Position numbers and translations under genes: made by a program. From the sequence record MW394390.1: 64,000 bases of DNA. One strand, written 5' to 3'. Numbering within the stretch: position 1 is the stretch's first letter; the number at the start of each line of letters is the position of its first letter. Below, in pieces: positions 22,377 to 64,000 of this stretch. The stretch is from Klebsiella phage vB_KpM_FBKp34. Below the pieces are notes generated by a model, which did not search any database, was not told where the DNA came from, and saw only the letters and a list, made by a program, of their open reading frames with translations.

Positions 22377-22598
22377 TTATATTTTAGGTTTATTTTTCTC
22401 AGAAAGTCTTTTAACCTCAATATCTCTATATTCAAGATCTCTTATATACTCTTTAAGTGCAATTGCTTCATGAAGTTGTAAGAAATAGTCAATACCATAT
22501 TGATCTAAAGAGTATCTCGTTTCTGATGTCTCTGATACTACTTTAAAAAACATATAATCATACCAAGTTAAAGACGAACTTTTCCTAGCAACATCCAT
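22377..22598 (-). CDS. tail assembly chaperone frameshift extension (E'/T-like)
   Basis: In the -1 frame relative to 22619..23134. That -1 frame stays open across the upstream gene's last ~35 codons. Confidence 0.5.
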   Translation of the reverse strand: MDVARKSSSLTWYDYMFFKVVSETSETRYSLDQYGIDYFLQLHEAIALKEYIRDLEYRDIEVKRLSEKNKPKI

Positions 22599-22618
22599 AG
22601 CTCTTTTGATGCTAGGGT

Positions 22619-23134
22619 TTACTCGGCTTTGCTCAGACCCACCACTGGAATGATCGAGCGAATAAGTTTTCCGAAACCTGTCTTGAAAAAAGGGGAGTAG
22701 TTTATCTCAACAACTTTAGCCATTAGTTGTAAAATAACCTCGTTTTTACCCATGAAAAGAGTATCGAAGTTTTCAAGAACACTTGTATTCTCATAATAAA
22801 CTTCATCTAACAACAGAGCAATGAATTGAAGAAGATCATCTTCATCCATTGTATTAAATAGCTGTAACAGAGCAGCAGGAAGGGCTTCAGAAAAGCTAGC
22901 TTCTCCTGGCTTTGTATCGACCATCATAGAAACAGGTACAGCAAAATACTTACCGATTTTAGAAATTCTTGAAAAAGTTTTAGTTGGACTCCAGTGGATA
23001 ATCCTGAAATTCATTTTTTCACCGCTAATACACTCAGCAGTAAACGTTGTCTCTGGTGCAGCTAATCTTTTCATTGTAGATTGCTGTTGCATACCTTGAA
23101 TACTTTGCATATTATCTCCATAAAAATAAAGCAC
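22619..23134 (-). CDS. tail assembly chaperone (E/G-like)
   Basis: Lies between the tube and tape-measure genes. Contains the slippery heptamer U UUU UUC at 22685-22691. Confidence 0.55.
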   Translation of the reverse strand: MLYFYGDNMQSIQGMQQQSTMKRLAAPETTFTAECISGEKMNFRIIHWSPTKTFSRISKIGKYFAVPVSMMVDTKPGEASFSEALPAALLQLFNTMDEDDLLQFIALLLDEVYYENTSVLENFDTLFMGKNEVILQLMAKVVEINYSPFFKTGFGKLIRSIIPVVGLSKAE

Positions 23135-32685: not shown

Positions 32686-34230
32686 TCAATGTCTAGTGTT
32701 TAAACCAGATCTTTTAGTCAACGTTGGTGCTGATACTCTCGGAATAGCTGCTGCTACAAAACTTCTTTCTTTACACAAAGCATTGTATGCAGAAGCCGCA
32801 GCATCTGCCCAGTCATCTTTCCTTTCACTTGTAGACCTTTCACCATTAAATGCTTCTAGTTCCTTATAGAAAGCCTCTAAGGTGGCTTTATTTGTAAAAC
32901 TATCTTCTACAATACAAACTAGACCATTTTGACATGCACTTGAAAATGGCATAAATCTTGTAAGCTTAGATTTATTATTAGGCATAGGATCTGGTTTTAC
33001 TTTAAAACCTAAAATATTTAATTTCTTGGCGCTTTCTTGATATTCTACTTGTCCTGCTGCACCTGGATCTTTTGGTAGAATTACTGTAACATGTTCACCA
33101 TCGATCTCTGTTTGATTTTTTATTAACAGGTCTCTAGAGCCAGCCCTTTTCCTGAATTTACCAGCTATCATTGTCTTTTCATCTAATGTTTCTGGATCAA
33201 AATCACCAAAAATATAAAAAATACCATCTGCACTTTTACCCATTTTAACTGAGGCTGTAAAGTCAGGGTGTCTGTTCTGGTCTGAAGGTTCAGAAGATGC
33301 TTTATCCCACGCTCTAACAAGTTTTAAAGGTGGTACTTCACTTCTAGTCACCTTTGTTAACCACTCTCTTTGAAAGTTGTTGGACCCTTCAGCACGGGCA
33401 AACCAGCAGCCATCTAACAGCCTTGCACGGTTAACTTTGCTTTGTGCTTTTAATGCAGATAAATATTTAGGGTTAGCTTTAATAAGTTCTGGATTATCAA
33501 AAATTGTTCCTCCAATGAAAGCAAAAGTCATTGGTGGTACATACTTTGTTTCTCCAGTTGTAGGATCTTCAACATAACAAAGTTCTGGATAATCTTTAGC
33601 TAATTCTTCTTCTGTATCTGCAAATACTGGTGCATCGTTCACAATAACGAAATATCTTACAACACCACATCTATCTTCTCTTGGATAACCTTTTTCATCA
33701 AGATACCATAAAACCCAATTCATTACCCAAGAATCAGGATCAGGGTTTGTAGAGGCCATACAGAAAGAGTCAGTCTCTGATGCTGAACGGAGACGACCTA
33801 AAAGATATAAGAATTGGGTTTGAGTAAAGTGTGTTAATTCGTCAAAAGCCACCATTGAATATTGAAGACCCTGATGGTTCCCCTCTGCGTCATTTTCATT
33901 TTCTAGGTGTGTAAATTTAAGTGTCCCACCGCTTGTGTTGTTAAATATGATTTCCATATCTTTTTCACGAATCTTAGGTCTTAGTGGGGAGTATAGTTTT
34001 TTAGCCTCAGTAAATAAACCACCTGCCGCTTTTAATGGTGGAGATGTTCTACGGAAAAGTACTCCTTCAAAATCTTTATCATTTGCAGCATACTTTAACG
34101 CTTTTAAGAGAATCAATCTTGACTTACCAGATCCTGCTGCACCACCATAGATAAGAACATCCACTTTCTTATCTAACGCCATTTTTTGCTTACCTTCTTG
34201 GGCTTTAAATGTGATTACATTTCTTGCCAA
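32686..34230 (-). CDS. terminase large subunit
   Basis: Walker A LIYGGAAGSGKSRL. Size and position ahead of the portal gene. Confidence 0.8.
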   Translation of the reverse strand: MARNVITFKAQEGKQKMALDKKVDVLIYGGAAGSGKSRLILLKALKYAANDKDFEGVLFRRTSPPLKAAGGLFTEAKKLYSPLRPKIREKDMEIIFNNTSGGTLKFTHLENENDAEGNHQGLQYSMVAFDELTHFTQTQFLYLLGRLRSASETDSFCMASTNPDPDSWVMNWVLWYLDEKGYPREDRCGVVRYFVIVNDAPVFADTEEELAKDYPELCYVEDPTTGETKYVPPMTFAFIGGTIFDNPELIKANPKYLSALKAQSKVNRARLLDGCWFARAEGSNNFQREWLTKVTRSEVPPLKLVRAWDKASSEPSDQNRHPDFTASVKMGKSADGIFYIFGDFDPETLDEKTMIAGKFRKRAGSRDLLIKNQTEIDGEHVTVILPKDPGAAGQVEYQESAKKLNILGFKVKPDPMPNNKSKLTRFMPFSSACQNGLVCIVEDSFTNKATLEAFYKELEAFNGERSTSERKDDWADAAASAYNALCKERSFVAAAIPRVSAPTLTKRSGLNTRH

Positions 34231-34755: not shown

Positions 34756-34833
34756 TGGTAGACCGCCTGGGACTCGAACCCAGAACCTTCCGATTAAAAG
34801 TCGGATGCTACTAACCAATTGAGCTAGCGATCT
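34756..34833 (-). tRNA. tRNA-Lys (UUU)
   Basis: Hand-folded cloverleaf. Anticodon loop CUUUUAA. T arm CTGGG/TTCGAGT/CCCAG. CCA encoded. Confidence 0.7.
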
Positions 34834-34840
34834 ATATTAA

Positions 34841-34957
34841 TTAAAAACCCCAATTTTCTTCAGATTTGATAAGATCTGGTCTCTCATCATCGTGATACCA
34901 CTCATCACTAAAGATTCCTTCACCATAACCAATAAAACCATCAAATTGATCTTTCAT
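34841..34957 (-). CDS. small ORF (38 aa) between tRNAs
   Basis: AAGGAG SD then ATG. Product MKDQFDGFIGYGEGIFSDEWYHDDERPDLIKSEENWGF. Confidence 0.3.
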   Translation of the reverse strand: MKDQFDGFIGYGEGIFSDEWYHDDERPDLIKSEENWGF

Positions 34958-34979
34958 ATTTTTATTCTCCTTAAAAATT

Positions 34980-35055
<76 letters not shown>

Positions 35056-35070
35056 TTAATCTGGAGTTGA

Positions 35071-35250
35071 CTATAATACTTCTTCTAAATCTACGTCAAC
35101 ATCTTTTTTAAACTTTCTTTTCCCTTTCAAGGAAATATTGCCACAAAGTTTGCATCTTTGTCCTGGACTGATCATGTTGCAATCACAAGAGCAATAATGA
35201 TATGATTTTTTAGACTTCTTAGCTTTTATTCTATTACTATGTCTAATCAT
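35071..35250 (-). CDS. small zinc-ribbon protein (59 aa) between tRNAs
   Basis: MIRHSNRIKAKKSKKSYHYCSCDCNMISPGQRCKLCGN... Confidence 0.35.
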   Translation of the reverse strand: MIRHSNRIKAKKSKKSYHYCSCDCNMISPGQRCKLCGNISLKGKRKFKKDVDVDLEEVL

Positions 35251-35266
35251 AATAAACCTTTAAATT

Positions 35267-35342
35267 TGGAGCAACCGACGCGATTCGAACGCGCGACATC
35301 TGACTTGGAAGGACAGCGCTCTACCAACTGAGCTACGATTGC
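35267..35342 (-). tRNA. tRNA-Gly (UCC)
   Basis: D arm GCTCAGTTGGTAGAGC. Anticodon loop CUUCCAA. T arm GCGCG/TTCGAAT/CGCGT. Confidence 0.65.
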
Positions 35343-35753
35343 ATATTCACTAATGTATGATCTTAAGTCCTGAATATCGCCATATTCCCTACACAAGTAC
35401 CAAGTGTTTGCGAAACACTCCGCTTGTACCATTCCGTAATAATCAGTTCTCGCGATAACTAATCTACAGAATCACACCCCACAGGTGCAGCAAGGTTTTA
35501 AGTGTCTAAGACCATACATTAGTGTTTTGGATGGCAGGTACTGATCTCCTGCATTCTTTGAAGTGGCGGCAATTTCCACTTCTTGAGGTAAGCGCTGCCT
35601 AGCACCTGCGTATCAGTCTACGCATTCATCCAAAATTTTTATAATTTGGTGTGACTGATGGGGTATGATCCCATATCATCTCATTCACAGTGAGAAACGT
35701 TAGCCAATTACGCTCACAGTCACCATTGATTCTAAATATTATATGAATAACTT

Positions 35754-35813
35754 GGGTCTGTTTGGGACTTGAACCCAATATCAACGTCTTGATAGTCTCC
35801 ATACACAGACCAT
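35754..35813 (-). pseudogene. truncated tRNA-like element (acceptor and T arm intact, D and anticodon arms missing)
   Basis: GGTCTGT...TTGGG TTCAAGT CCCAA ACAGACC C. Only 26 nt lie between the acceptor strand and the T arm. Confidence 0.3.
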
Positions 35814-35963
35814 TATTTGGCACCAGAAGGAGGAATCGAACGCTCCTAATCAGGTCATGACTCCTGACTATCTCAAACCAAATACTGTTGTGTTGGCTAT
35901 TGTATAACGGCGAGCGCTCACCCTTATACAGACCTTCACTAGTATCGAGATCCTGGTATTGTT

Positions 35964-36055
35964 TGGTGCGGGTAGTGGGAGTCGAACCCACAGGAGGGTT
36001 TACCCCTCCGAGGGATTTTAAGTCCCTTGCGTACTGCCAATACCGCCATACCCGC
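35964..36055 (-). tRNA. tRNA-Leu (UAA), type II
   Basis: Acceptor GCGGGTA/TACCCGC. Anticodon loop CUUAAAA. Long variable arm. T arm TGGG/TTCGACT/CCCA. Confidence 0.7.
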
Positions 36056-36066
36056 ATTAAATCTGA

Positions 36067-36141
36067 TGACCCCCGGAGGATTCGAACCTACCTGCCTCTC
36101 GATTATGAGTCGATTGCTCATACCTAATGAGCTTGAGGGCC
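36067..36141 (-). tRNA. tRNA with CAU anticodon (Met, fMet or Ile2)
   Basis: Acceptor GGCCCTC/GGGGGTC (two G.U pairs). Anticodon loop CUCAUAA. CCA not encoded. Confidence 0.55.
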
Positions 36142-36210
36142 ATTTCTTGTATCTCTTTGATGTACTTACTGTATCAAATCTTCTAGCATCTTGTCAACAA
36201 CAAATTTTAA

Positions 36211-36546
36211 CTATTTCTGTTTTCTTAACTCTTCAAGTAACTTCTTAGTGTAACCTTGGAGTGCTTTCAGATTATCACGATCTTCCTGCCAAAGTCCATT
36301 GTTTTTTGAAGTTATCAGTTTTAATGCTTCTGTGTTGCTTGGACCATTTTTTAACTGTTCTTCAGTTGGTTTATATGGCGTCTTAGGATCTCTCATCCAA
36401 TCTGGATCAGGATCTTGAATTTCTATCTTACTGGTGACAGTACACTCATTCGGGTAAACTGTCTTGGTAGAGTTGCATCCACTTACCATCAAGGCAACGC
36501 AGATTGCCAGAATCACTTTTTTCATAGTTAGTAATCTCATCATCAA
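36211..36546 (-). CDS. o-spanin (Rz1-like outer-membrane lipoprotein)
   Basis: Lipobox LAICVALMVSGC. Overlaps the 3' end of the i-spanin in another frame. The start may be the internal MKKVIL at 36525. Confidence 0.6.
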   Translation of the reverse strand: MMMRLLTMKKVILAICVALMVSGCNSTKTVYPNECTVTSKIEIQDPDPDWMRDPKTPYKPTEEQLKNGPSNTEALKLITSKNNGLWQEDRDNLKALQGYTKKLLEELRKQK

Positions 36547-36868
36547 CTTTATCTTTTTTATCTTTTCTTTTCTTTTTAAGATCAGAATTCTCTTTCTTCA
36601 ACAAAGTAATTTCCTGATTAAGTTCTTGCCTTTCTTTGTCTTTAACTTTCAATCTTTCTTCATACTGGACTTTAAGATCATTTTGTTCTTTTTTATAAAT
36701 AGAAACTTGATGCTCAACACCATTTTGATATCCAGTGTTGTAATAATGATTTGTTAACAGAGAATAACCTACTTTAAGAAATATTGCAAGTACAACTGTT
36801 AAAATAAAATATCTTAAAGTTTTATTATTCCATAATGATTTAAGAATTGTTAGGATCGAAGTTACCAT
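36446..36868 (-). CDS. i-spanin (Rz-like)
   Basis: N-terminal TM helix plus a long charged coiled-coil. Overlapped by the o-spanin gene. Confidence 0.55.
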   Translation of the reverse strand: MVTSILTILKSLWNNKTLRYFILTVVLAIFLKVGYSLLTNHYYNTGYQNGVEHQVSIYKKEQNDLKVQYEERLKVKDKERQELNQEITLLKKENSDLKKKRKDKKDKVDDEITNYEKSDSGNLRCLDGKWMQLYQDSLPE

Positions 36869-37025
36869 TTAATTCCTCATACTGTTCTACTGCAATATTA
36901 ACACGATCTTCATAGAGTTGGTCTAATTCCCACTCTATAGATGTTTTACGACTGTAGTCATTCTTTTGATCTTTATGATATCCGCCAAAATTATGATCAT
37001 GTTTTGCTACAAAATTATTTTTCAT
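36840..37025 (-). CDS. hypothetical small protein
   Basis: ORF only. Confidence 0.25.
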   Translation of the reverse strand: MKNNFVAKHDHNFGGYHKDQKNDYSRKTSIEWELDQLYEDRVNIAVEQYEELNGNFDPNNS

Positions 37026-37299
37026 ATTAAACCTATGCTAAAATATAATTATTTAAACAACTAAAGGGACATTTTGAAAAAGTCTTATTTATCTAAATCA
37101 CACTCTAAAACTTTTAGTGTCACACATATTATTTTTGTTTCTAGATATAGAGAAATATATTCAATCTTAAGAAAGACCTGATTAACACTTAGCTCACTAA
37201 TCCCACACCTAAAGTGAGTGGGCTTATCGTTCGCAATTTGGTAATAGATTGAATAGTCTGTATCGTTCAATCGTTAGTTATGACGCTATATGCATATCA

Positions 37300-38700
37300 T
37301 CAGGCTATTTGACATCCTCCCCATCCTAAAGGATGGGGATTCCTAATTCATCGAGGTTTCTAATGAAACCTCTCCAAAGGCTTAAATTTCCGTGTGTCCC
37401 ACGGTATTTATTTCTATATAACTATAATATATTAAATTCTTTTATGCAGCAAGAGCTTTACAATTAAAAATTTCTAAACCTCTTTTATGAATATTTAAAG
37501 CAGCATTAATGTCTCGGTCATGGTCTGTTTTACAAGAAGGACACACCCAATGACGAACATTAAGTTTCAATTCCTCAAGAACATGACCACAACATGAACA
37601 AGTTTTAGACGAGGGATAGAATTGTTCTATCTTCACAATGCTACGTCCAAACCAGGATGCTTTATACTCAAGTTGCCTTACAAACTCACCCCAAGATGCA
37701 TCAGCAATATGTTTTGCCAATTTTCTATTTTTAATCATATTTTTAACTTTCAAAGTTTCAGTAGAAATTATTTGGTAAGTTTTTACTAAATTAGATGTTG
37801 CTTTATGCAATGCATCACGGCGAGAATCACTAACTTTAGCATGTGTTTTAGCAACTTTCAAACGCATTTTATTATAATTGCTTCCACCTTTTTTCATCCG
37901 ACTAAGTTTTCTCTGCAAACGTGCGAGACGTTTAGCATATTTCTTTGTAAACTTGCCATTTTTACCTTTAAGTCCATCTGCTGTAATATAAAGGTCTTTT
38001 AAACCAAGATCAATGCCTGTTGTCTTACTCGATATTGGCAGTTCTTCAATTTCAGTTTCACACAAACAAGACACAAAATATCTACCAGATGCATCTTTAC
38101 TGATAGTAATTGACGAAGGGTGACTTGGTAATTCACCATAACTCCATTTAACATCCAGCGAGACTTTCATTGATTTGGCAATGAAAAGTTGACCATTAAT
38201 GTATTTAAAAGCATTCTTCGTGAGATTAAATGAGTAACTATTATCATAACGGCTTTTGAACTTAGGAAATCTAGCTCTTCCAGAGAAAAAGTTGCTATAA
38301 GCTTTTTCTTGGTTTCTCAGTTCTTGTTGCAGTGCTACCACTGAAACTTCGTTAAGCCACTCATATTCTTTTTTAACTTTAGTTAACTCTCTCGATGCTT
38401 CGGCAAAGTTAATCTTATTTTTATCTTTTTCATAAGCCTCTTTTCTCCAAGCTAATATATGGTTATAGATAAAACGACAAGAACCAAATGTCTTAGCAAG
38501 AAGGATTTTTTGTTCTTGTGTTGGATAAAAACGCATTTTATAAGCTTTTAAAATAATCTTTTTCATTTGATCCCTTTCTAACTATCGTTCTCAGTTTGGT
38601 CAGAATTCACAAAGTGATCTAAATCATATTTAATAAATCATAAAATTGACATCCTCCTCACCCTAAAGATTGTGGAGTTTCTCCTTCATAGAACCTTATA
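37300..38700 (-). mobile_element. IS200/IS605-family tnpB-only element (IS1341-like) with subterminal hairpins
   Basis: The tnpB ORF is flanked by direct repeats TTGACATCCTCCYCAYCCTAAAGRAT at 37309-37336 and 38646-38670. Hairpins CCCCATCC taaa GGATGGGG and GAGGTTTC taat GAAACCTC lie just 3' of tnpB. Confidence 0.45.
37442..38566 (-). CDS. tnpB: TnpB (IS605 OrfB, RuvC-like RNA-guided nuclease)
   Basis: N-terminal RFYPTQEQ...FGSCRFIYN. RuvC-I motif [10 protein letters not shown]-terminal zinc ribbon CSCCGH...CPSCK. Confidence 0.75.
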
Positions 38701-38998
38701 ATCAAGACTCTCCAGAGACTTAAAATCGGTGATGTCCTCACCTACTGAAAATCATAATATACTACTTAAATCTAAAGTTCAAGCTTTTTACTTTTTCGTT
38801 TAATTGTCAAAAACGTTATCAATAGCTCTGTTGATACTCCCAGCCATAAATAACTGGGATTCTTCCTTCAATGGCTTTCTAACGATTACCTCCAGAAGCA
38901 TAACTTCGGCGTTAACCACACCTAGAAGATTACTTGTCTTTCGACTTGTTTCTCTCAACAAGAGACACTTTACAGAGTCCCTTAGTAAAAGTCAACGT

Positions 38999-39373
38999 CT
39001 ATTTAAAATTTGTTTCACACAGTAATGTGCAATGTCGAGAATCACCAACAATGAAAGCATATGCTGTTAGTGCTTCTGTATTAGCATACATTATCTCTTC
39101 GCATGGTGCAAACATCACTTTATTTCCTGAAATTTCACTGCCAATTGTATCTTTAATTGTTTTTGCTACAAGACTTAAAATTTTTAATACTTGATCCAAG
39201 TCTCCAGATTGAATTTTATCTACTATATCCTTAGTTAAGTGACCAACATCTATCGGGTAAAATTTAATACCATCTTCATGTTTTTGCAAAAATTTATAGC
39301 TTATTCCATCTTCTTCTAAGAGGTCTCTGACCATTTTATCCAACATACCAGATAAGTCAACTAAAATATTCAT
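38999..39373 (-). CDS. hypothetical protein
   Basis: ORF. Confidence 0.4.
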   Translation of the reverse strand: MNILVDLSGMLDKMVRDLLEEDGISYKFLQKHEDGIKFYPIDVGHLTKDIVDKIQSGDLDQVLKILSLVAKTIKDTIGSEISGNKVMFAPCEEIMYANTEALTAYAFIVGDSRHCTLLCETNFK

Positions 39374-39458
39374 ATGTTTCTCCTGTAGATATTAAACGTT
39401 AACCTTATAGACTCAAGGTTAACAAAACAGACTTAGTTTGTCAACATCTTGCTTAGAT

Positions 39459-40316
39459 TTAAGAATCTTGGATTATCAATACCCCATTTTTCTTCAATTC
39501 TCTAAACTTTTCAACTTGAATGCAAGCTTCTTGAAAATTTTTACTCAGGTGAGTAGGTACGAAAATTGCCTTTCCTGTTGGATTTAAATAAAATTTAAAA
39601 AATCTCTTTTCACACTCTATCAGATTTCCTTCATTTTTCAAGTAAATTTTGAAATTTTTATTACCCTTTTTGTAAGTTTTAAGCTTTGGAAAAACCTCAT
39701 ACAGTTTACTTATCTCGTCTTCCTCACAAACTGCAATAATTTTATCTGCTTTTATATTGTTTTCCTTCAATTTATACAGAGTATTATGAAGTACTGGGAA
39801 AACTTCACAAGGAATATTAAGACTATTTAATCTAGCTTGATTTATAAATCCATCTTTATCAAAGGTAACATGAAAAATGTACTGTTCATAGGATGTTACA
39901 GTAAACATCAAACTGGTGTTTAGATTCTTACTATCTGCTATTGATTTTTCTAATAGATCTAATGGGATGTTAAGTTGTATGGCACTATTTTTTATGGCCT
40001 TTAAATTTGCAATTTTAACTGTCAAAAATTCAGAATCTATTTCTTCCTGTAGATCATAAAAAATCTTATTGATTTTGTCTAAGATTGTAGATGGGTCTTG
40101 TATGTTTTTTGTTATACAATTTAAAATATTTTTTAATTTTTCAAAGGTATTCATGTAGTCTCCTGTATAAATATACATGTTTAATGTTGAGATATGACTA
40201 TACCAAAAGTCATAATGTGTGTCAATAAAAATATAAAAGAAAACCCCAGCATTTCTGCCAGGGTTTATCATGTCATTCAATTTTAAAGATTGGTCCTGTA
40301 TCTTCCTCTTCTTCAA
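39459..40316 (-). CDS. hypothetical protein
   Basis: ORF. Confidence 0.4.
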   Translation of the reverse strand: MKKRKIQDQSLKLNDMINPGRNAGVFFYIFIDTHYDFWYSHISTLNMYIYTGDYMNTFEKLKNILNCITKNIQDPSTILDKINKIFYDLQEEIDSEFLTVKIANLKAIKNSAIQLNIPLDLLEKSIADSKNLNTSLMFTVTSYEQYIFHVTFDKDGFINQARLNSLNIPCEVFPVLHNTLYKLKENNIKADKIIAVCEEDEISKLYEVFPKLKTYKKGNKNFKIYLKNEGNLIECEKRFFKFYLNPTGKAIFVPTHLSKNFQEACIQVEKFRELKKNGVLIIQDS

Positions 40317-40596
40317 CCTTAGTTTCCTCTACACCAGATGGCAGTTCATCATCTTCTTGCTCCATTTCTGCAAGGACGCTTTCTACTGCCTCTTTGATTG
40401 TTTTTGCAGATGAAATTTTATTGGTAACAGAAGCTTTTTCATCATCCAGTACTGCTACAAGATAATTAACTGCTTTCATATAATTCTCAGCTAACTTCTC
40501 TTGACCCTCAAGGATGCTTGTTTGAAGTTCATAAAGAAGTCTATCCTGTCTTGCTGGACGACCACGACCACGTTTCATAATTTTTGGTTTAGCCAT
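40273..40596 (-). CDS. hypothetical AT-hook-like DNA-binding protein
   Basis: N-terminal KRGRGRPA followed by an acidic tail. Confidence 0.35.
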   Translation of the reverse strand: MAKPKIMKRGRGRPARQDRLLYELQTSILEGQEKLAENYMKAVNYLVAVLDDEKASVTNKISSAKTIKEAVESVLAEMEQEDDELPSGVEETKVEEEEDTGPIFKIE

Positions 40597-40783
40597 AATC
40601 CTACCTACTTATCTTAGACACTTACAGTGACTTACATAAAAATAAAGCGGCATAGAATTAATCTAGCCGCTTATACAAATGCACTTTAAGATATCACCCT
40701 CAGAGGAGAGTTGAGAGTTTATCGGCTTCTTTAACAAAAAGCTGTGCTTATACAGCTAAGGCGCTGCTTGTGCTCATTTAAAT

Positions 40784-40860
40784 TGGCAAACCCACTAGGA
40801 CTCGAACCTAGACTGTACGGTTTTGGAGACCGACATGCTGTCCAGTAACATTCTGGGAAT
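40784..40860 (-). tRNA. tRNA-Trp (CCA)-like, acceptor stem imperfect (possible pseudogene)
   Basis: Good T arm CTAGG/TTCGAGT/CCTAG and anticodon loop CUCCAAA. The acceptor ATTCCCA/TGGGTTT has two U.U mismatches. Confidence 0.35.
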
Positions 40861-40865
40861 ATTGT

Positions 40866-40941
40866 TGGTGGAACCCGATAGAATCGAACTATCTCCTAAT
40901 GCTCTTCAGGCATCCGCGCGAACCATCTACGCCAGAGTTCC
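40866..40941 (-). tRNA. tRNA-Phe (GAA)
   Basis: Acceptor GGAACTC/GGGTTCC. Anticodon loop CUGAAGA. T arm GATAG/TTCGATT/CTATC. CCA encoded. Confidence 0.7.
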
Positions 40942-40946
40942 TTTAT

Positions 40947-41021
40947 TGGCGGGCATACTTGGACTCGAACCAAGATCAAACGGTTAACAGCCGTCCGTAC
41001 TAACCTTTGTACTATACACCC
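40947..41021 (-). tRNA. tRNA-Asn (GUU)
   Basis: Anticodon loop CUGUUAA. D stem GTAC/GTAC. T arm CTTGG/TTCGAGT/CCAAG. Confidence 0.7.
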
Positions 41022-41216
41022 TTAAGTTTTACCATAATAGACAGAGATAGTTTTACCATTCTGATTCATTACGTATGCTACCTCATCTTCTTTAAGAAAG
41101 ATATTTTGATCTAGTCCAGAAATAGCAATACTCTTTTGTTTCGGGTTGAATCCGACACTATTGCCATCATGAATCTCTTCCCCACCTTCTGTCGAAATAA
41201 CTTTTACTGTTAACAT
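41022..41216 (-). CDS. hypothetical small protein
   Basis: AGGAG SD then ATG. Abuts the tRNA-Asn 5' end. Confidence 0.4.
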   Translation of the reverse strand: MLTVKVISTEGGEEIHDGNSVGFNPKQKSIAISGLDQNIFLKEDEVAYVMNQNGKTISVYYGKT

Positions 41217-41262
41217 TTGCTTCTCCTGTGGTTTGTCATCTCTGACTTTTAGTTATAAAAAT

Positions 41263-41340
41263 TGGTCTCCCCTACAGGATTCGAACCTGTGACCCGATGC
41301 ATCCAAAGCACCCACGCTGACCAGACTGCGCTAAGGAGAG
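41263..41340 (-). tRNA. tRNA-Pro (UGG)
   Basis: Anticodon loop UUUGGAU. T arm ACAGG/TTCGAAT/CCTGT. Confidence 0.7.
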
Positions 41341-41346
41341 ATAATT

Positions 41347-41421
41347 TGGAGGGTAGTAGTGGAATCTAACCACTCTAATACTGTTTTGCAGACAGATACA
41401 TGAACACTCTGACAACTACCC
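41347..41421 (-). tRNA. tRNA-Cys (GCA)
   Basis: Acceptor GGGTAGT/ACTACCC. Anticodon loop CUGCAAA. T arm AGTGG/TTAGATT/CCACT. The D arm is weak. Confidence 0.5.
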
Positions 41422-41427
41422 TTTAAT

Positions 41428-41504
41428 TGGTTGCGGCTATGGGTATTGCACCCATCTTACTCTAGTTTATGAGACTAGAAAGAACTCTCTGCCTCCCAAC
41501 CGCA
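41428..41504 (-). tRNA. second tRNA with CAU anticodon (Met, fMet or Ile2)
   Basis: Perfect anticodon stem CTAGT/CUCAUAA/ACTAG. The T loop TGCAATA is unusual. Confidence 0.5.
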
Positions 41505-41595
41505 ATAACTTAATACTTAATTATGGCGGGAACTTCATGCACTCCACCATGCGTTGGAAGCCAAGGAGTGTTCTCATGTAAGTATTCCCATGATT

Positions 41596-41671
41596 TGGTG
41601 CTACGGACTGGACTTGAACCAGTGACAACTCGATTATCGGTCGAGCATTCTACCAACTGAATTACCGAAGC
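41596..41671 (-). tRNA. tRNA-Ile (GAU)
   Basis: Anticodon arm CTCGA/CCGATAA/TCGAG. D arm ATTCAGTTGGTAGAAT. CCA encoded. Confidence 0.65.
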
Positions 41672-41677
41672 ATTGTT

Positions 41678-41763
41678 TGGCGGAAGATGCAAGGGTTGAA
41701 CTTGCACACCCTTTCGGATGGCGGTTTAGCAAACCGCTGTGGCTACCATTTCACCAATCTTCC
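41678..41763 (-). tRNA. tRNA-Ser (GCU), type II
   Basis: Acceptor GGAAGAT/ATCTTCC. Anticodon loop UUGCUAA. Long variable arm. Confidence 0.65.
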
Positions 41764-41843
41764 TAAATTTAAAGGCATTTAAGCCAGTTAATGTTTCCCT
41801 GGATTTATAGACACTGGTTCATTAACATCACACTCGTCTTATC

Positions 41844-41929
41844 TGGCGGTAGATTGAAGAGTCGAACTCCTGCCCTTTCGGACCCCTCCGGGTTCAAACC
41901 GGATTGCCAACCACTTAGCGGAACCTACC
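41844..41929 (-). tRNA. tRNA-Ser (UGA), type II
   Basis: Anticodon arm TCCGG/UUUGAAC/CCGGA. Long variable arm GGGGTCCGAAAGGGC. Confidence 0.65.
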
Positions 41930-41935
41930 TTTATT

Positions 41936-42013
41936 TGGTACATCTAGAGAGATTCGAACTCATCACTGACTGGAACCTAAATCCAGTGCCTCTACCAATT
42001 GGGCTATAGATGC
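41936..42013 (-). tRNA. tRNA with UAG anticodon (reads CUA; Leu-like) but class I architecture
   Basis: Perfect anticodon stem CTGGA/UUUAGGU/TCCAG. Short variable region. The T stem is weak. Confidence 0.45.
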
Positions 42014-42023
42014 ATTTATTATT

Positions 42024-42101
42024 TGGCGTTCTGTATGGTATTCGAACCCATAGAAATCCACCTTGAAAGGGTGGTGACTTTACCTGTTTGTCCAACAGAA
42101 C
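42024..42101 (-). tRNA. tRNA-Glu (UUC)
   Basis: Acceptor GTTCTGT/ACAGAAC. Anticodon arm CCACC/CUUUCAA/GGTGG. Confidence 0.6.
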
Positions 42102-42109
42102 ACAATTTT

Positions 42110-42223
42110 TGGCGGTGAATTCAGGAATCGAACCTGAGCCTACTCCATGACAAGGGAGATTGAATGCTGTAAAACTTCTCTAAGAAGTTATTTTTAGTTA
42201 TTCTACCACTAAACTAATTCACC
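42110..42223 (-). ncRNA. 114-nt tRNA-like gene with canonical acceptor, D and T arms and an internal ~38-nt insertion
   Basis: GGTGAAT TA GTTTAGTGGTAGAAT ... TCAGG TTCGATT CCTGA ATTCACC G CCA. The anticodon cannot be assigned. Confidence 0.4.
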
Positions 42224-42229
42224 TAAACT

Positions 42230-42306
42230 TGGCGCGTCCGACGGGTTACGATCCCGCATTCTCTCCCGTGACAGGGGAGTACCATTACCTAGCCAGCCCC
42301 AGACGC
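42230..42306 (-). tRNA. tRNA-Asp (GUC)
   Basis: Anticodon arm CTCCC/CUGUCAC/GGGAG. Acceptor GCGTCTG/CGGACGC. Confidence 0.65.
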
Positions 42307-56385: not shown

Positions 56386-56598
56386 ATGAAACATATTTTA
56401 ATAGTACTATTATTCTTATCTTATTCAGTTTTTGCAAATGAGAATAAGAAGGATGTATTTTTGTTTACACCTAAAACTGATGAGATCTTCGAAGTCAAAA
56501 CTAATGATGGAAAACAATTGTGGTGTTATGTCTCCGATAAATTAATAACGAGATTAACTATAAAGTGCTTTGATAAAAATTTTGATAAGGAGAAATAA
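56386..56598 (+). CDS. small secreted protein (signal peptide)
   Basis: MKHILIVLLFLSYSVFA. Confidence 0.4.
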   Translation: MKHILIVLLFLSYSVFANENKKDVFLFTPKTDEIFEVKTNDGKQLWCYVSDKLITRLTIKCFDKNFDKEK

Positions 56599-57374
56599 TG
56601 AGACGTCTTATAGTAATAAGTGGGGCGGGCTTCTCTGCGGAGAGCGGTGTACGTACATTCCGCACAGATACTGAATCTGGGAAAGCTTTATGGGATGAAT
56701 ATGACCTTGAGGAGGTTTGTAACATACACGCCTTCCGTGGTAACTTCTACCATAAAACACACATGTTTTATAACAAGCGTCGTGCAGAGTTACCAACGGT
56801 ACACCCGAATGCTGCACATCTTCGTGTTGCTGAATGGTACAAACGTTATCCTGGACAAGTTATCAACATGACGACTAACGTCGATGATTTGTTGGAACGT
56901 GCAGGTGTACCGAAAGAAGATACTCTGTACATTCATGGATACCTGAAAGAAATTCGTTATCAGATGCATGAGGATTCTGAAGAAGAATTGGTGGATATTG
57001 GTTATGCACAAATTGATCCTGATGATTATTATTGGTGCAAACCAAACGTAGTATTTTTTGGGGAGAATGCTCCGGCCTATGCTGCTATGTATGACACCTT
57101 GGAGTCATTGACAAATCAGGATCTTGTAATTGTTGTAGGCTGTTCAAATACAGTTATTAACTTCAACTGGGAACTTTTCCCTGCTTCAAGGATTGGTACT
57201 AAGGTTGTTGTAGTCAATCCAAATGTTCGGTATGATGAGCAGTTGATGTACGAAGATGCTGGTGTTATAGTTTATCGGACTGGAGCAGTGGATGCCTTTA
57301 GTAACTTAGATCTGATTAAAATGGTTGAAGACCATCTCGAAGGTAAAACTGGGCTTCAAAAATTAGGAAAATGA
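56598..57374 (+). CDS. Sir2-family (sirtuin-like) NAD-dependent protein
   Basis: GAGFSAESGVRTFR (sirtuin GAGISxxSGIPxFR motif). Catalytic IHG. VVFFGE. VVGCSNTV. The zinc-binding cysteines are mostly absent. Confidence 0.7.
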   Translation: MRRLIVISGAGFSAESGVRTFRTDTESGKALWDEYDLEEVCNIHAFRGNFYHKTHMFYNKRRAELPTVHPNAAHLRVAEWYKRYPGQVINMTTNVDDLLERAGVPKEDTLYIHGYLKEIRYQMHEDSEEELVDIGYAQIDPDDYYWCKPNVVFFGENAPAYAAMYDTLESLTNQDLVIVVGCSNTVINFNWELFPASRIGTKVVVVNPNVRYDEQLMYEDAGVIVYRTGAVDAFSNLDLIKMVEDHLEGKTGLQKLGK

Positions 57375-57793: not shown

Positions 57794-58012
57794 ATGCAAA
57801 TTTACTTAAATGATAAAGTTAAGATTAAAGATGGTGTTTTTGATGAGCTAGGTAATCAAAATATTGACTTATCTGGTAGGATTGGATATGTTTCTAGAAT
57901 TGGTTATCGGTCAGATGAATTCCCTTTTGCTGTTAGTCTTGTAAGTAAAGAGACTGGACAGATTGAAAAAGAATTAGTTTTTAATATTGACGAATTGGAG
58001 GTTATATCTTGA
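57794..58012 (+). CDS. hypothetical small protein
   Basis: ORF. Confidence 0.35.
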   Translation: MQIYLNDKVKIKDGVFDELGNQNIDLSGRIGYVSRIGYRSDEFPFAVSLVSKETGQIEKELVFNIDELEVIS

Positions 58013-59370
58013 CACTAACTGAAATTATTAATGAACTTGCTTCTACTTCTTCTAAAAATGAAAAAGAAGCTATCATGATCAAAAACAAAGATAATAAAGA
58101 TCTTAAGCGTCTTTTTGAAGTAACTTATTCTAAAGACTTAAACTTTTTTGTGCGTCAATTTAAAGTGGATCTAATTAATACCGAAGGTTTAATGGATATT
58201 AATGAAAGCATTGAAATGCTTGTTAATGAGGTTGCTTCAAGAAATTATACGGGTAATGATGCACGAAGCTATATGACACAACTTGTGCAAACTTGTAAAG
58301 AACCAGAACTACTTTTAAAAGTAATCAACCGTGATCTTGAATGTGGAGTTCAACAAACAATTACAAATAAAGTATGGAAAGATATTATCACTGATCCGCC
58401 ATATATGAGTTACAAACTCTTTAAGCCAGAGTTGATCAAGAAGTTAAAATTTCCAGCTTATTCTGATGTAAAACAGGACGGTCTGTATGCTGATGTTATT
58501 GTTCATAAAGACTTAATTATTTATCGGTCAAGGTCGGGTAAAGAACTTAATTTCCGTCTACCTGAAAGTGAAGAGCGTAAACTTAAAGAATTGGCAGAAT
58601 ATCCTGGTGAATCTTTTGTTCTTCATTCAGAAGCCCTTGTCATTGATCCATCTTATCCAAATGGAGTTCAACCTCGTGAAATAGGTAATGGATACTTGAA
58701 TCAAGACCCAGAACTTATTGATTGTAATAAAGTTAAATTAGTAACTTGGGATATGGTCACTTATAAAGAATATCTAGCACGTAAAAGTGAAGAGACTTAT
58801 GATATTCGTCGTGAAGAACTTAGATGCCTCACACAACATTTAAAATCAAATCATGTTGAAATGATTGAAGGTGTTGTGGTAAACTCTATCTCTGAAATTA
58901 TTGATCATTTTATTGCTTGTCGTAAAAAAGGTCTTGAAGGTACTGTAGTTAAATCATTTACACTTCTTTGGGAAGATAAGAAAGTTTCCCAAGGTATTAA
59001 GATTAAAAATGAGTTTGATGCAGAATTTGTTATTGTTGGCTACATTGAACATAAGAAAAAGCCTGGATGGATTGGATCTCTCCTTGTTGAGAGTTCAGAT
59101 GGTAAAATTAAATTCGGTGTTGGTTCTGGTTTAACTGACAAACTAAGAAAAGAACCTTTTGAGAATTTCAAATTAAAAATTCTTACTGTTAAAGGTAATG
59201 ATATTGGTTGTTCTGAATCAAAAGATACTTGGTCTGTTTTCTTACCACGTTATGTTGAGCTTCGTAATGATAAAACCAAAGCAAATACATTTGAAGAATG
59301 TATGGAAGCAAAAGATTCAATAATTGCAGTTCTGAAAGAGATTGCTGAAGACTTAGAGAATAAGGAGTAA
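58009..59370 (+). CDS. ATP-dependent DNA ligase
   Basis: Motif I VKQDGLYADVIV (KxDG). 453 aa. Confidence 0.7.
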   Translation: MTLTEIINELASTSSKNEKEAIMIKNKDNKDLKRLFEVTYSKDLNFFVRQFKVDLINTEGLMDINESIEMLVNEVASRNYTGNDARSYMTQLVQTCKEPELLLKVINRDLECGVQQTITNKVWKDIITDPPYMSYKLFKPELIKKLKFPAYSDVKQDGLYADVIVHKDLIIYRSRSGKELNFRLPESEERKLKELAEYPGESFVLHSEALVIDPSYPNGVQPREIGNGYLNQDPELIDCNKVKLVTWDMVTYKEYLARKSEETYDIRREELRCLTQHLKSNHVEMIEGVVVNSISEIIDHFIACRKKGLEGTVVKSFTLLWEDKKVSQGIKIKNEFDAEFVIVGYIEHKKKPGWIGSLLVESSDGKIKFGVGSGLTDKLRKEPFENFKLKILTVKGNDIGCSESKDTWSVFLPRYVELRNDKTKANTFEECMEAKDSIIAVLKEIAEDLENKE

Positions 59371-61360: not shown

Positions 61361-61417
61361 TATTGACTTGGCAGGCAGAGATGTGATACTCTTTGCCTGT
61401 TCAACAAAGGGGATAAT

Positions 61418-61645
61418 ATGAAAAATCTATTTGTGGCAATCTTTATCATTTTAGTGGCTACTCTTGTTTTGTTGTTTTCTCAAAGTTCAAGAGCAACACA
61501 AATCACTCTAACTGATCCAGATGAGCAAATCACTTCAGACGGTAAGATGTGTGTTTATGAAAACTCACAAGTAACTAAGGTCATCTACGTAGGTGAACAT
61601 TCTAAATGTCCTTATGCAAAAACTTTTACAGTAGAAGATGAGTAA
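61418..61645 (+). CDS. small secreted or membrane-anchored protein
   Basis: N-terminal signal or TM helix. Confidence 0.4.
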   Translation: MKNLFVAIFIILVATLVLLFSQSSRATQITLTDPDEQITSDGKMCVYENSQVTKVIYVGEHSKCPYAKTFTVEDE

Positions 61646-61659
61646 AATTAGGAGGTGTT

Positions 61660-62757
61660 ATTAGCTTTAATACAATAAAAATAGAAGACTTACCAAAGTA
61701 TATTGATGAAAATACTAAATTGGTAATAGACTACGATCAGGCAGCATTTCAATCTGCCGCGGCTCTTGAAAAACGTGAAATAAAAGCTATTCATAAAGCC
61801 TCTGGTCGTAGTATGACATTTAAAAATAGAACAGAGTTCTATGGTAAAAAGAAAAACTCATTGGAAGATAGTTGGCTTGGTGATCAAAACACTATGCGAG
61901 AAGCAAAAGGACAAAGACCTTTCTCCAAAGATGAATTTGACATTGAAGATGTTCAAATTGCCTCAGAAGTCTCGCATACCCTTTATGAATGTAAACGTAG
62001 AATAGAAAACTATTGTAAGCATTTAGGTATTGAAGATTATTTTGGAGTAATCGGAAAAGGTGAAACATTCCGCCATGAGTTACCCCTCCCACAAAAATAT
62101 AAATCTAATCGAGATACTGCTCTTAGACCATTACTGTTAACAGAAGCTAAAGATTATTTGGTAGAATACCACGAAGGTAAGATTGTAACTGGTATTGAGG
62201 CCGATGATATGTTAACTCGTTATGGCTACAGAGGTTGGCTTGATTATAAAAAGACGGGGAAATTTTCCTACCTTGTAGGCACCATGGATAAAGACCAACG
62301 TGGAACACCTTGCCTATACTTTGACATTTTTGCTCAAAAAGGAAAGTTTAGAGATCCAGATCCTATTCTCATTGACGATGGACTCGGTGAAATCTGGCTG
62401 CAAAAAGGAGAGGTTAAGGGTTATGGTGCAAAATGGCTGGCAGTTCAAATGTGTAAAGGTGATGAATCTGACCATGTGAGACCATATCAAGATTTTGGAA
62501 TAGTTTATGGTGATACATCTTGTTATCACGATTTTCATGATGCAAAATCTGCTAAAGATCTATTTACAAGAGTTCTTAATAGATTCGTAGAATGGTTTCC
62601 TGATGGTGTAGAGTATGATGCATGGAATGGTCAACATATGAAACTTAACTCTTTAGAGTGGGCTAATATGATGTTTAAACTTGTCTACATGCACAGGATT
62701 AAAGATGATCCAACAACTTTCACAAAACTTCTTCAACACTACGGAGTTCTTAAATAG
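61660..62757 (+). CDS. T4 RNase H-like 5'-3' exonuclease / flap endonuclease; start codon uncertain (AUU 61660 or UUG 61720)
   Basis: LVIDYDQAAFQSAAA resembles T4 RNase H ICLIDFSQIALSTAL. IEADDML resembles YEADDHI. The frame is open from 61642 with a GGAGG SD at 61651-55. Confidence 0.65.
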   Translation: MSFNTIKIEDLPKYIDENTKLVIDYDQAAFQSAAALEKREIKAIHKASGRSMTFKNRTEFYGKKKNSLEDSWLGDQNTMREAKGQRPFSKDEFDIEDVQIASEVSHTLYECKRRIENYCKHLGIEDYFGVIGKGETFRHELPLPQKYKSNRDTALRPLLLTEAKDYLVEYHEGKIVTGIEADDMLTRYGYRGWLDYKKTGKFSYLVGTMDKDQRGTPCLYFDIFAQKGKFRDPDPILIDDGLGEIWLQKGEVKGYGAKWLAVQMCKGDESDHVRPYQDFGIVYGDTSCYHDFHDAKSAKDLFTRVLNRFVEWFPDGVEYDAWNGQHMKLNSLEWANMMFKLVYMHRIKDDPTTFTKLLQHYGVLK

Positions 62758-62765
62758 GAGGTAGC

Positions 62766-63386
62766 ATATACACAATAGGAATCGATCAATCATACTCCAA
62801 CTTTGCTTATGTTATTTTTGACAATAATCAGCAAGTAATAGACAGAGGAGTTTTGCACACAGGAGATAATAATGAATCTAATTCCAAAAAACAGTTCGGG
62901 AAGTATTATAATTCAACCCAAGAACAACTCCAATACCTCTACTCAGAATTCAAGCCAGTGGTATCTAAATATTCCCCTTGTCAGTTGGTATTTGAGGGCT
63001 TATCCTTCGGTTCTATCGGTAATAGAGTTTTTGATCTTGGCGGGCTATTTTATTTCATTACAACTTCACTAGTAATGGAAGGTCTTGTTAACATTAAAGA
63101 CATACATACCGTGACGCCTACATCTGCTAAAAAACTTGCGAGAGATCACCTAAGTGAAGATGATCAATACGAGAAAGATAAGTCAGGTAATGTTGTAATA
63201 GCTAAGAACAAAAAACCTAAATTGAAGAAAATGGATAAACCAGATATGCTTAAGGCTCTTAATAATACAGATGACAAGTGGATTGTTGATGGATATTCAG
63301 CAAGTTCAGTTAAAATTCAAACAGGTATTAAAGACCTTCCAGATGCATATTGGTTAGCAAGAACTTTCTTAAAGGAGGTTGTATAG
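62766..63386 (+). CDS. RuvC-like Holliday junction resolvase; apparent AUA start after an AGGAGG SD
   Basis: IYTIGIDQSYSNFAYVIFD resembles RuvC MAIILGIDPGSRVTGYGV. This motif lies upstream of the first canonical start, TTG at 62853. Confidence 0.55.
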   Translation: MYTIGIDQSYSNFAYVIFDNNQQVIDRGVLHTGDNNESNSKKQFGKYYNSTQEQLQYLYSEFKPVVSKYSPCQLVFEGLSFGSIGNRVFDLGGLFYFITTSLVMEGLVNIKDIHTVTPTSAKKLARDHLSEDDQYEKDKSGNVVIAKNKKPKLKKMDKPDMLKALNNTDDKWIVDGYSASSVKIQTGIKDLPDAYWLARTFLKEVV

Positions 63387-63934
63387 CAAGGAAAACATTT
63401 AAAAGGAAGAGTTCTACAAAATCTAAAACAAAGAAAATAGCAGTAGAACTCAATCCTTCTTTTTGGTTAAGAAATACAGAAGAAGTTCGTAAATGGAGGG
63501 AAGAACATAAACCTGAATCTGGTCTATGTCCTATCCTTAAAATAAAACCTAGAATTTGGACTCTGGATCATGACCATGCAACAGGTGAGGTGAGAGGGGT
63601 TATCTCTAGTTTAGGTAATCTTGCAGAAGGAAGATTCAACAGAGTATATGAAAAATATTTAGCAAATCATACTGATCTTTCTTTCTCAGAAGTGATGAGG
63701 AATCTTGCAGATTATTTAGAAAGGGCTGAACATTTTGAAAATATGTTACATCACAGATTTGTAGAAGATCAGAGAAAATATCTTAATAGATGCACTAAAG
63801 CAACTATAGCTATTAAAGCTAAAGACTCATTCCAATTAATATTGGATGAAAATATAATGAGTAAAGAAGAAATGATCTATGCTTATCTTGTTGAATTTGT
63901 AAAAGCTTATGAGGAAATGAATGGAAAAACTTAA
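63383..63934 (+). CDS. T4 endonuclease VII-like resolvase (start AUA 63383 or UUG 63350)
   Basis: LDHDHATGEVRGVISSLGNLAEG resembles T4 endo VII HLDHDH...VRGLLCNLCNAAEG. Upstream GLCPIL. GGAGG SD 4 nt before ATA. Confidence 0.55.
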   Translation: MARKTFKRKSSTKSKTKKIAVELNPSFWLRNTEEVRKWREEHKPESGLCPILKIKPRIWTLDHDHATGEVRGVISSLGNLAEGRFNRVYEKYLANHTDLSFSEVMRNLADYLERAEHFENMLHHRFVEDQRKYLNRCTKATIAIKAKDSFQLILDENIMSKEEMIYAYLVEFVKAYEEMNGKT

Positions 63935-64000
63935 GTTCTATTATATTAATTGGAAAGGAGAGAAAAGTTTAAGAACTGTACAAGATCCTAAATTCTGGTT

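Follow-up and report, generated by a model that had tools for sequence, protein, structure and literature searches.

Start sites of three adjacent nuclease genes

The window analysed here is a stretch of 64,000 nucleotides (nt) from Klebsiella phage vB_KpM_FBKp34 (MW394390.1). Its last part carries, on the plus strand, three consecutive genes for putative nucleases acting on structured DNA: a 5'-3' exonuclease of the T7 gp6-like or FEN-like type (phrog_107, 61660–62757, 365 codons), a RuvC-like Holliday-junction resolvase (phrog_159, 62766–63386, 206 codons) and an endonuclease VII (PF02945, phrog_423, 63383–63934, 183 codons). GenBank lists all three as hypothetical proteins that start at TTG codons (61720, 62853 and 63350 in window coordinates), none of which has a Shine-Dalgarno (SD) sequence. 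A first-pass annotation had placed the starts at ATT or ATA codons behind strong SDs, and both direct reading and the alignment of homologues bore this out: judging from the sequences, translation of the three genes very probably begins at ATT 61660, ATA 62766 and ATA 63383. The N-termini predicted from these codons are (M)SFNTIK for the exonuclease, (M)YTIGIDQSYSNF for the RuvC-like protein and (M)AR for endonuclease VII.

The exonuclease frame is open from 61642, behind a TGA at 61639–61641, and its SD, AGGAGGTG (61650–61657), presents GGAGG followed by the 4-nt spacer TGTT and then ATT. The RuvC-like frame is open from 62754; its SD, TAGGAGGT (62755–62762), includes AGGAGGT (62756–62762) and contains the exonuclease stop codon TAG (62755–62757), and the spacer between GGAGG and ATA is TAGC. 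The SD of endonuclease VII, AAGGAGGT (63372–63379, spacer TTGT), lies within the 3' end of the RuvC-like gene, and ATA 63383 overlaps the RuvC stop codon (ATAG). At all three sites the distance from GGAGG to the start codon is exactly 4 nt (N4). The first canonical start is TTG 61720 in the exonuclease frame and TTG 62853 in the RuvC-like frame, and direct reading confirmed that no ATG, GTG or TTG lies between the opening of either frame and its conserved motif. The conserved N-termini of both proteins precede the annotated TTGs; the RuvC-like motif IGIDQS occupies residues 4–9 and includes Asp7, and the exonuclease motif LVIDYDQ spans and just follows TTG 61720. For endonuclease VII the GGAGG-N4-ATA arrangement was found as described, although the in-frame TTG at 63350, upstream of the SD, had been overlooked.

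Upstream of the exonuclease lies a small open reading frame (ORF) (phrog_4641, 61418–61645, plus strand) that codes for 75 amino acids (aa) with a signal-peptide-like N-terminus and ends in a TAA 14 nt before the exonuclease ATT; this same small gene is also found 5' of the exonuclease in the phages ZCKP1, VEcB and phi92. At the DNA level, positions 61400–64000 are 99.0% identical to Klebsiella phage KP13-16 (OP617741.1, 137 kb, Stephanstirmvirinae), and besides KP13-16 no phage record was found to be closely similar to this region. With 25 differing positions in 2.6 kb KP13-16 is an isolate independent of the window, and all three start contexts are identical in the two phages. Only three of the differences fall inside the proposed N-terminal extensions, and each is a synonymous third-position change. 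The earlier view that the pattern is not a sequencing error was supported: this independent isolate has the same start contexts, and further relatives show the same arrangement.

Start codons and conserved N-termini in related phages

The same junctions were read in about 25 loci: GenBank phages and seven metagenome contigs, the latter retrieved at the protein level with the RuvC-like sequence as query. Every near-cognate start compared is preceded, at a distance of 4 nt, by a GGAGG or GGGGG core. Alignment of the N-termini with those of homologues, the check that the first-pass annotation had proposed, gave strong support, as ATT and ATA coincide with the positions at which the homologues start. 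These starts combine an SD at a functional distance, the lack of a canonical start that would give the conserved N-terminus, and phylogenetic conservation of the codon. Genes starting at ATT, ATC or ATA (together ATH) or at CTG carry the strongest SDs at exactly N4, whereas their ATG homologues have weaker or differently spaced SDs, which suggests that start codon and SD strength may have been co-adjusted.

The exonuclease matched phrog_107 ("exonuclease", E = 2e-49, residues 8–363) and gave no Pfam match and no PDB sequence match. PF02739 (5_3_exonuc_N) matched four of ten homologues (best E 5.7e-6) and not the window protein, so that the label FEN-like used in the first-pass annotation applies via the homologues only. 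Residues D24, D26 and Q27, located at and just after TTG 61720, are invariant in the 10 homologues, as are the acidic residues E180, D182, D183, D210 and D212, and a start at TTG 61720 would delete 20 conserved residues. Among 16 sequences of the Stephanstirmvirinae/KP13-16 type (KP13-16-like phages, Phapecoctavirus and Justusliebigvirus), the start codon was ATT in 12, ATC in three, ATA in one and ATG in none. In the KP13-16-like group it is ATT in the window, KP13-16, L020, L021, L023, L024 and L025 and ATA in L022; in Phapecoctavirus and relatives it is ATT in ZCKP1 and Tr1 and ATC in phiWec179 and PsgM04F; and in Justusliebigvirus it is ATT in VEcB, phi92 and EmilieFrey and ATC in FKP3. 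In all of these relatives the ATH codon is directly followed by Ser or Gly, and an in-frame canonical start before DYDQ occurs only in phiWec179 and PsgM04F (TTG). Among relatives, the codon that the phiWec179 record takes as its TTG start reads TTA, CTT, CTG or TTG, which marks it as an ordinary codon for Leu. Column 1 of the alignment holds the exonuclease ATT of the window and, in the Vequintavirinae orthologues of rV5, KB57, A73 and PBES02, an ATG, GTG or TTG. The RefSeq note on the truncated exonuclease of phi92 (gp085) reads "No RBS identified; weak Prodigal statistics", and a start at the ATT would explain why the curators identified no RBS. The Vequintavirinae orthologues tend to have weaker canonical starts (TTG in rV5, L002, 1018; GTG in KB57, L003, 1073), and across the exonuclease family start strength forms a gradient ATG > GTG > TTG > ATH.

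The RuvC-like protein matched phrog_159 (E = 3e-22, residues 3–203), had no Pfam match and gave only a marginal PDB profile match to RuvC (E = 0.11); PDB sequence searches with the window nucleases returned nothing significant, and a search of IMG/VR for close relatives of the RuvC-like protein gave no matches. In an AlphaFold model built on 11 sequences (pLDDT 90.9), residues 2–8, 12–18 and 24–34 form strands β1–β3, and the top 13 Foldseek matches of this model in the PDB were all RuvC proteins, from bacteria and from Lactococcus phage bIL67 (E down to 6e-8, TM 0.65–0.78 relative to the target). Residues D7, E77, D190 and D193 are invariant in 14 homologues and represent the RuvC-type acidic tetrad. 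The predicted fold and the four acidic residues, including an Asp at the end of β1, place the protein among the RuvC-like resolvases. A start at TTG 62853 would delete residues 1–29, and with them D7, β1, β2 and most of β3. The shortened products of the TTG starts, for the RuvC-like gene as for the exonuclease, are predicted to be insoluble or to lack activity on Holliday junctions and flaps. Near-cognate starts were found in seven of nine close relatives: ATA in the window, KP13-16, L020, L021 and L025, ATT in L026 and CTG in L022. Canonical starts are present in L023, P0004, rV5, KB57 and Vibrio phage 166E36-1 (all ATG), L024 (TTG) and A73 (GTG). The start lies exactly five codons before DQS in the KP13-16-like relatives, KB57, A73 and Vibrio phage 166E36-1, and eight codons before it in rV5. 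When the 29-codon extension was compared with five relatives, 54 of 73 differences were at third positions, with 42 synonymous and 20 non-synonymous codon changes; in the exonuclease extension, seven of nine differences were at third codon positions. Because the differences concentrate at third positions and are mostly synonymous, the extensions evolve as coding sequence under purifying selection.

Endonuclease VII was identified by PF02945 (32.1 bits against a cutoff of 23.6, E = 1e-7) and phrog_423 (E = 1e-23); LDHDH, RGV, N and EG are invariant in the alignment, and the H-N-H-type DHDH core is present. The start is ATH in 12 of 13 phages, namely ATA in the window, KP13-16, L020, L021, L025 and L026 and ATC in L022 and in the five Vequintavirinae rV5, KB57, SSE121, GAP31 and FENT2, and ATG only in Serratia phage Kashira, where it aligns with the ATA. 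The ATH codon opens a conserved basic peptide, I-(A/R/V)-(R/K)-(R/K). TTG 63350 is unlikely to be the real start, because L021, L025, L026 and KB57 have no TTG at this position; in these four, no in-frame canonical start lies upstream and the frames open just before the SD, and in L026 no canonical start precedes the catalytic LDHDH motif. GenBank already gives an ATT start to rV5 ORF97 and an ATC start to GAP31_151, both endonuclease VII genes; for rV5 ORF97, the rule of an SD followed after 4 nt by the start selects the ATC one codon downstream of the annotated ATT.

In L022 the exonuclease starts at ATA, the RuvC-like gene at CTG and endonuclease VII at ATC, with an unrelated 248-aa gene between the latter two. 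Because L022 keeps the near-cognate starts despite this inserted gene, the property goes with the genes themselves and does not depend on their being neighbours. The inserted ORF (L022, 3569–4315) has weak CapR/MUG113 Pfam matches, and a 115-aa ORF (L020, 2666–3013) lies between the exonuclease and RuvC-like genes of L020; both insertions into the nuclease trio may be mobile or homing-type.

Background, alternative explanations and predicted output

To place the three starts against the background of the window, every ORF in it was scanned for an ATH or CTG that is in frame, precedes the first canonical start and has an SD match of at least 5 nt. Among real genes that would gain 10 codons or more, this recovered only 61660 and 62766. 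Roughly 90 further genes begin conventionally, at an ATG, GTG or TTG behind an SD, and no other gene in the 64 kb shows near-cognate start behaviour. The spacing N4 is also the commonest among ATG-starting genes with a GGAGG (seven of 15). Genome-wide relaxed start use and an alternative genetic code were ruled out by the roughly 90 ordinary starts and by a scan that returned only these genes.

A special phage-encoded initiator tRNA reading ATH was also considered and found no support in the two tRNAs with a CAU anticodon that ARAGORN called. These are part of a cluster of 17 ARAGORN tRNAs on the minus strand (34756–42306). One of them (36065–36142) resembles the elongator tRNA-Ile2, the AUA decoder, in a comparison with Escherichia coli sequences. 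The other, called tRNA-Met (41428–41504, minus strand), has an initiator-like acceptor stem (UGCGG...CCGCAACCA), an odd T-loop and no G:C-rich anticodon stem, and is not recognised by the Rfam tRNA model. Rfam did identify a tRNA with a GCA anticodon at 41350–41421 (minus strand) that ARAGORN had missed.

Several observations weigh against near-cognate initiation or against its serving to limit expression. Taken alone, the motif GGAGG-N4-AT[TAC] shows no enrichment in the window (six of 58 GGAGG sites against 4.2 expected). The in-frame TTG 63350 upstream of the endonuclease VII start does exist in the window and in KP13-16, the RuvC-like frame of L020 has an extra ATG seven codons upstream of its ATA, and individual phages may use alternative or dual starts. 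Relatives of 59–91% identity differ in whether their RuvC start is canonical or near-cognate, a lability that fits weak or fluctuating selection as well as tuning. RNA folding energies around the starts were no better than those of shuffled sequences (z-scores of about 0), and no extra regulatory element was seen there. Moreover, when the context was optimised in vitro, mRNA with an AUA start performed like mRNA with AUG (PMC5499595), and infC, which starts at AUU, reaches thousands of copies per cell (PMC5499595), so that low expression from ATH starts is not guaranteed.

If the GenBank annotation were right, the genes would start at the three TTGs and the SD-ATH arrangements would be coincidental. 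Gene callers do pick these TTGs, the lack of enrichment of the bare motif fits this explanation, and two of the six GGAGG-N4-ATH sites are internal to larger genes, one occurring by chance in the terminase gene (33504, minus strand) and one in a Sir2-like ORF (56724); a start at TTG 63350 would also overlap the RuvC 3' end, as the annotated ATT and ATG starts do in rV5 and Vibrio phage 166E36-1. The signal derives, however, from position, context and homology and not from the bare motif. None of the TTGs has an SD, those at 61720 and 62853 would cost 20 conserved residues and Asp7 with β1–β3, respectively, and the one at 63350 is absent in L021, L025, L026 and KB57. In addition, the phiWec179 TTG is a variable Leu codon, the upstream extensions are under purifying selection and the phi92 curators noted no RBS for the truncated exonuclease, which together leave this explanation very improbable. 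The chance of a sequencing or assembly error, of pseudogenes, or of a frameshift or readthrough fusion with the upstream ORF appears negligible. The missing canonical start codon is the sole point that speaks for any of these, while identical contexts are present in two independent isolates, the arrangement recurs in more than 15 GenBank phages and in seven metagenome contigs assembled independently, and the ORFs are intact and under purifying selection. As for a fusion, there is no conserved slippery site, the upstream gene is in frame with the exonuclease in ZCKP1 and shifted against it in the window and VEcB, and L020 and L022 have other upstream genes.

Two further explanations accept the ATH starts as real. 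The codons might be used mainly through termination-reinitiation, output being set by upstream translation and not by de novo 30S binding. In line with this, all three genes start no more than 14 nt after an upstream stop (TAA 14 nt upstream, TAG within TAGGAGGT and the ATAG overlap), and L020, L021, L025 and L022 repeat the TAGGAGGT and TAAGGGGG arrangements even with a different upstream gene. No terminators and no above-chance promoter matches were found between the three genes, and reinitiation at codons other than AUG can be studied experimentally and responds to IF3 (PMC2268962). Close stop-start spacing is, however, the rule for nearly every gene in this packed genome and hence unspecific, and coupling does not require an SD of full strength, a feature more characteristic of genes that initiate independently. 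We regard predominant reinitiation as possible but doubtful; it would refine near-cognate initiation and is no alternative to it. It is also conceivable, though less likely still, that the ATH starts are selectively neutral, tolerated behind a perfect SD for scarce proteins while the codon drifts. The RuvC start is ATA, ATT, CTG, ATG or TTG among the relatives of 59–91% identity, and in the wider exonuclease family ATG, GTG, TTG, ATT, ATC and ATA all occur. Drift is at odds with the 16 exonuclease sequences, which represent about 10 distinct N-termini in at least three genus-level groups and have T, C or A but never G as third base, although one transversion would turn ATH into ATG. Endonuclease VII likewise avoids G, across two subfamilies, and the consistent pairing of ATH and CTG starts with the strongest SD at N4 looks like co-adjustment.

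Taken together, intact genes with near-cognate initiation behind near-perfect SDs and low translation are, with good probability, the best explanation of the locus. According to published measurements, AUA, AUC, AUU and CUG initiate at 1–2% of the AUG level in E. coli reporters (bioRxiv 10.1101/063800) and values of 5–7.5% apply to a phage hydrolase, initiation depending strongly on context and temperature (PMC5499595); the AUU of infC is the target of control by initiation factor 3 (IF3) (PMC5499595). In the mechanism proposed here, the strong and optimally spaced SD would recruit the 30S subunit, or hold a ribosome that has just terminated on the upstream gene. Initiator fMet-tRNA would pair imperfectly with AUU or AUA, and IF3 would reject most such complexes, so that each gene would be translated at a few percent of the AUG level. 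As a result, the three enzymes, which cut branched or flapped DNA, would be supplied at a constitutively low level that may be sensitive to IF3. While the start sites and their evolutionary conservation can be read from the alignments, we infer a throttling effect and an adaptive value: it is plausible that the weak codons keep potentially harmful structure-specific nucleases scarce.

Elsewhere in the window, the ligase-like ORF (58009–59370) and the large terminase (32686–34230, minus strand) both have TTG starts behind GGAGG, and the combination of a weak canonical start with a strong SD is common among the enzyme genes of this phage. The 258-aa Sir2-like ORF (56598–57374, plus strand) has an N-terminal motif, GAGFSAESGVRTFR, of the kind found in NAD-dependent enzymes of the Sir2 family; the ORF starts at an upstream codon of its own, and its internal GGAGG-N8-ATA is not a start. 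In the tail-gene region, a 73-aa ORF (22377–22598, minus strand) is preceded by 36 open codons that overlap the 3' end of a 171-aa ORF (22619–23134), and the pair (22377–23134) looks like tail-assembly-chaperone genes joined by a programmed frameshift.

Comparison with known near-cognate starts and consequences for annotation

The three nuclease genes resemble infC and pcnB of E. coli, the only two confirmed non-canonical starts in that organism, both AUU (bioRxiv 10.1101/063800), in that a near-cognate start preceded by an SD is conserved at a specific gene. In infC and pcnB the AUU is read by the initiator tRNA under IF3 discrimination, which lowers or regulates translation. In infC it also closes an autoregulatory loop in which IF3 senses its own mRNA, whereas no such loop is implied for the phage nucleases. 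Unlike these two genes, the phage genes appear to use ATA, ATC and CTG as well, and the codons would serve three adjacent viral genes of one functional class. A further parallel is ebpA of Enterococcus faecalis, which was annotated from a downstream canonical codon while its true start is an upstream ATT (PMC4447247); there the rare ATT attenuates the protein level of a single bacterial pilus gene, as proven by mutagenesis, whereas the evidence for the phage nucleases is comparative. Initiation at such codons on phage mRNA in E. coli is known from a T4 rIIB AUG-to-AUA mutant (about 15%) and from the HB-3 hydrolase started from AUA, AUU or AUC (5–7.5%), both as cited in PMC5499595; these are laboratory mutants or constructs, whereas the nuclease starts are naturally conserved. 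The closest precedents are rV5 ORF97 and GAP31_151, orthologous endonuclease VII genes in the same SD context whose starts are annotated as ATT and ATC, respectively. The near-cognate starts of the exonuclease and RuvC-like genes, and the ATA codon, were not annotated in the GenBank records compared. A literature search found no paper describing these starts, and the rV5 paper (PMC3606486) makes no mention of them. Near-cognate initiation itself is established, and the Phage Annotation Guide names ATT and ATC among the possible start codons of phages (PMC8785237). New are its occurrence in the exonuclease and RuvC-like genes, the ATA and CTG start codons, the clustering in three functionally related nucleases, the breadth of conservation over Stephanstirmvirinae, Vequintavirinae and uncultured relatives, and the systematic misannotation that results.

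Dozens of phage genomes in GenBank and RefSeq list these nucleases as truncated "hypothetical proteins" without catalytic residues, or have spurious ORFs in the gap; examples are KP13-16, ZCKP1, phi92, VEcB, the BASEL phage EmilieFrey, FKP3, Tr1, KB57, SSE121 and FENT2. Because the ATT or ATC start went unrecognised, some records show short spurious ORFs, a few of them on the opposite strand, where the exonuclease gene begins, and in others the gene is more than 140 codons too short. Annotation is affected in this way in FKP3 (L011, 434–799), Tr1 (L013, 450–593) and ZCKP1 (L006, 3912). The rule of an SD, 4 nt and an ATH codon corrects these annotations, and correct ORFs matter when genes are recoded or deleted in Klebsiella and E. 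coli phages of these subfamilies for engineering or therapy.

A more far-reaching idea, which we consider rather improbable, is that the near-cognate starts are a selected, shared control device that ties the branched-DNA enzymes of at least two subfamilies to IF3 stringency or to the ratio of IF3 to ribosomes. If this were true, the flap exonuclease, the RuvC resolvase and endonuclease VII would all be made in larger amounts once initiation becomes less accurate in the course of infection, for instance at a late stage, when concatemers must be resolved for packaging, and a start codon plus a maximal SD would alone make up a translational timer. Since E. coli and Klebsiella phages conserve AUU, AUC, AUA and CUG starts and have AUG orthologues as natural controls, they would provide a system in which the co-tuning of start codon and SD can be studied, and which could reveal whether phages exploit IF3 discrimination to keep dangerous nucleases low.

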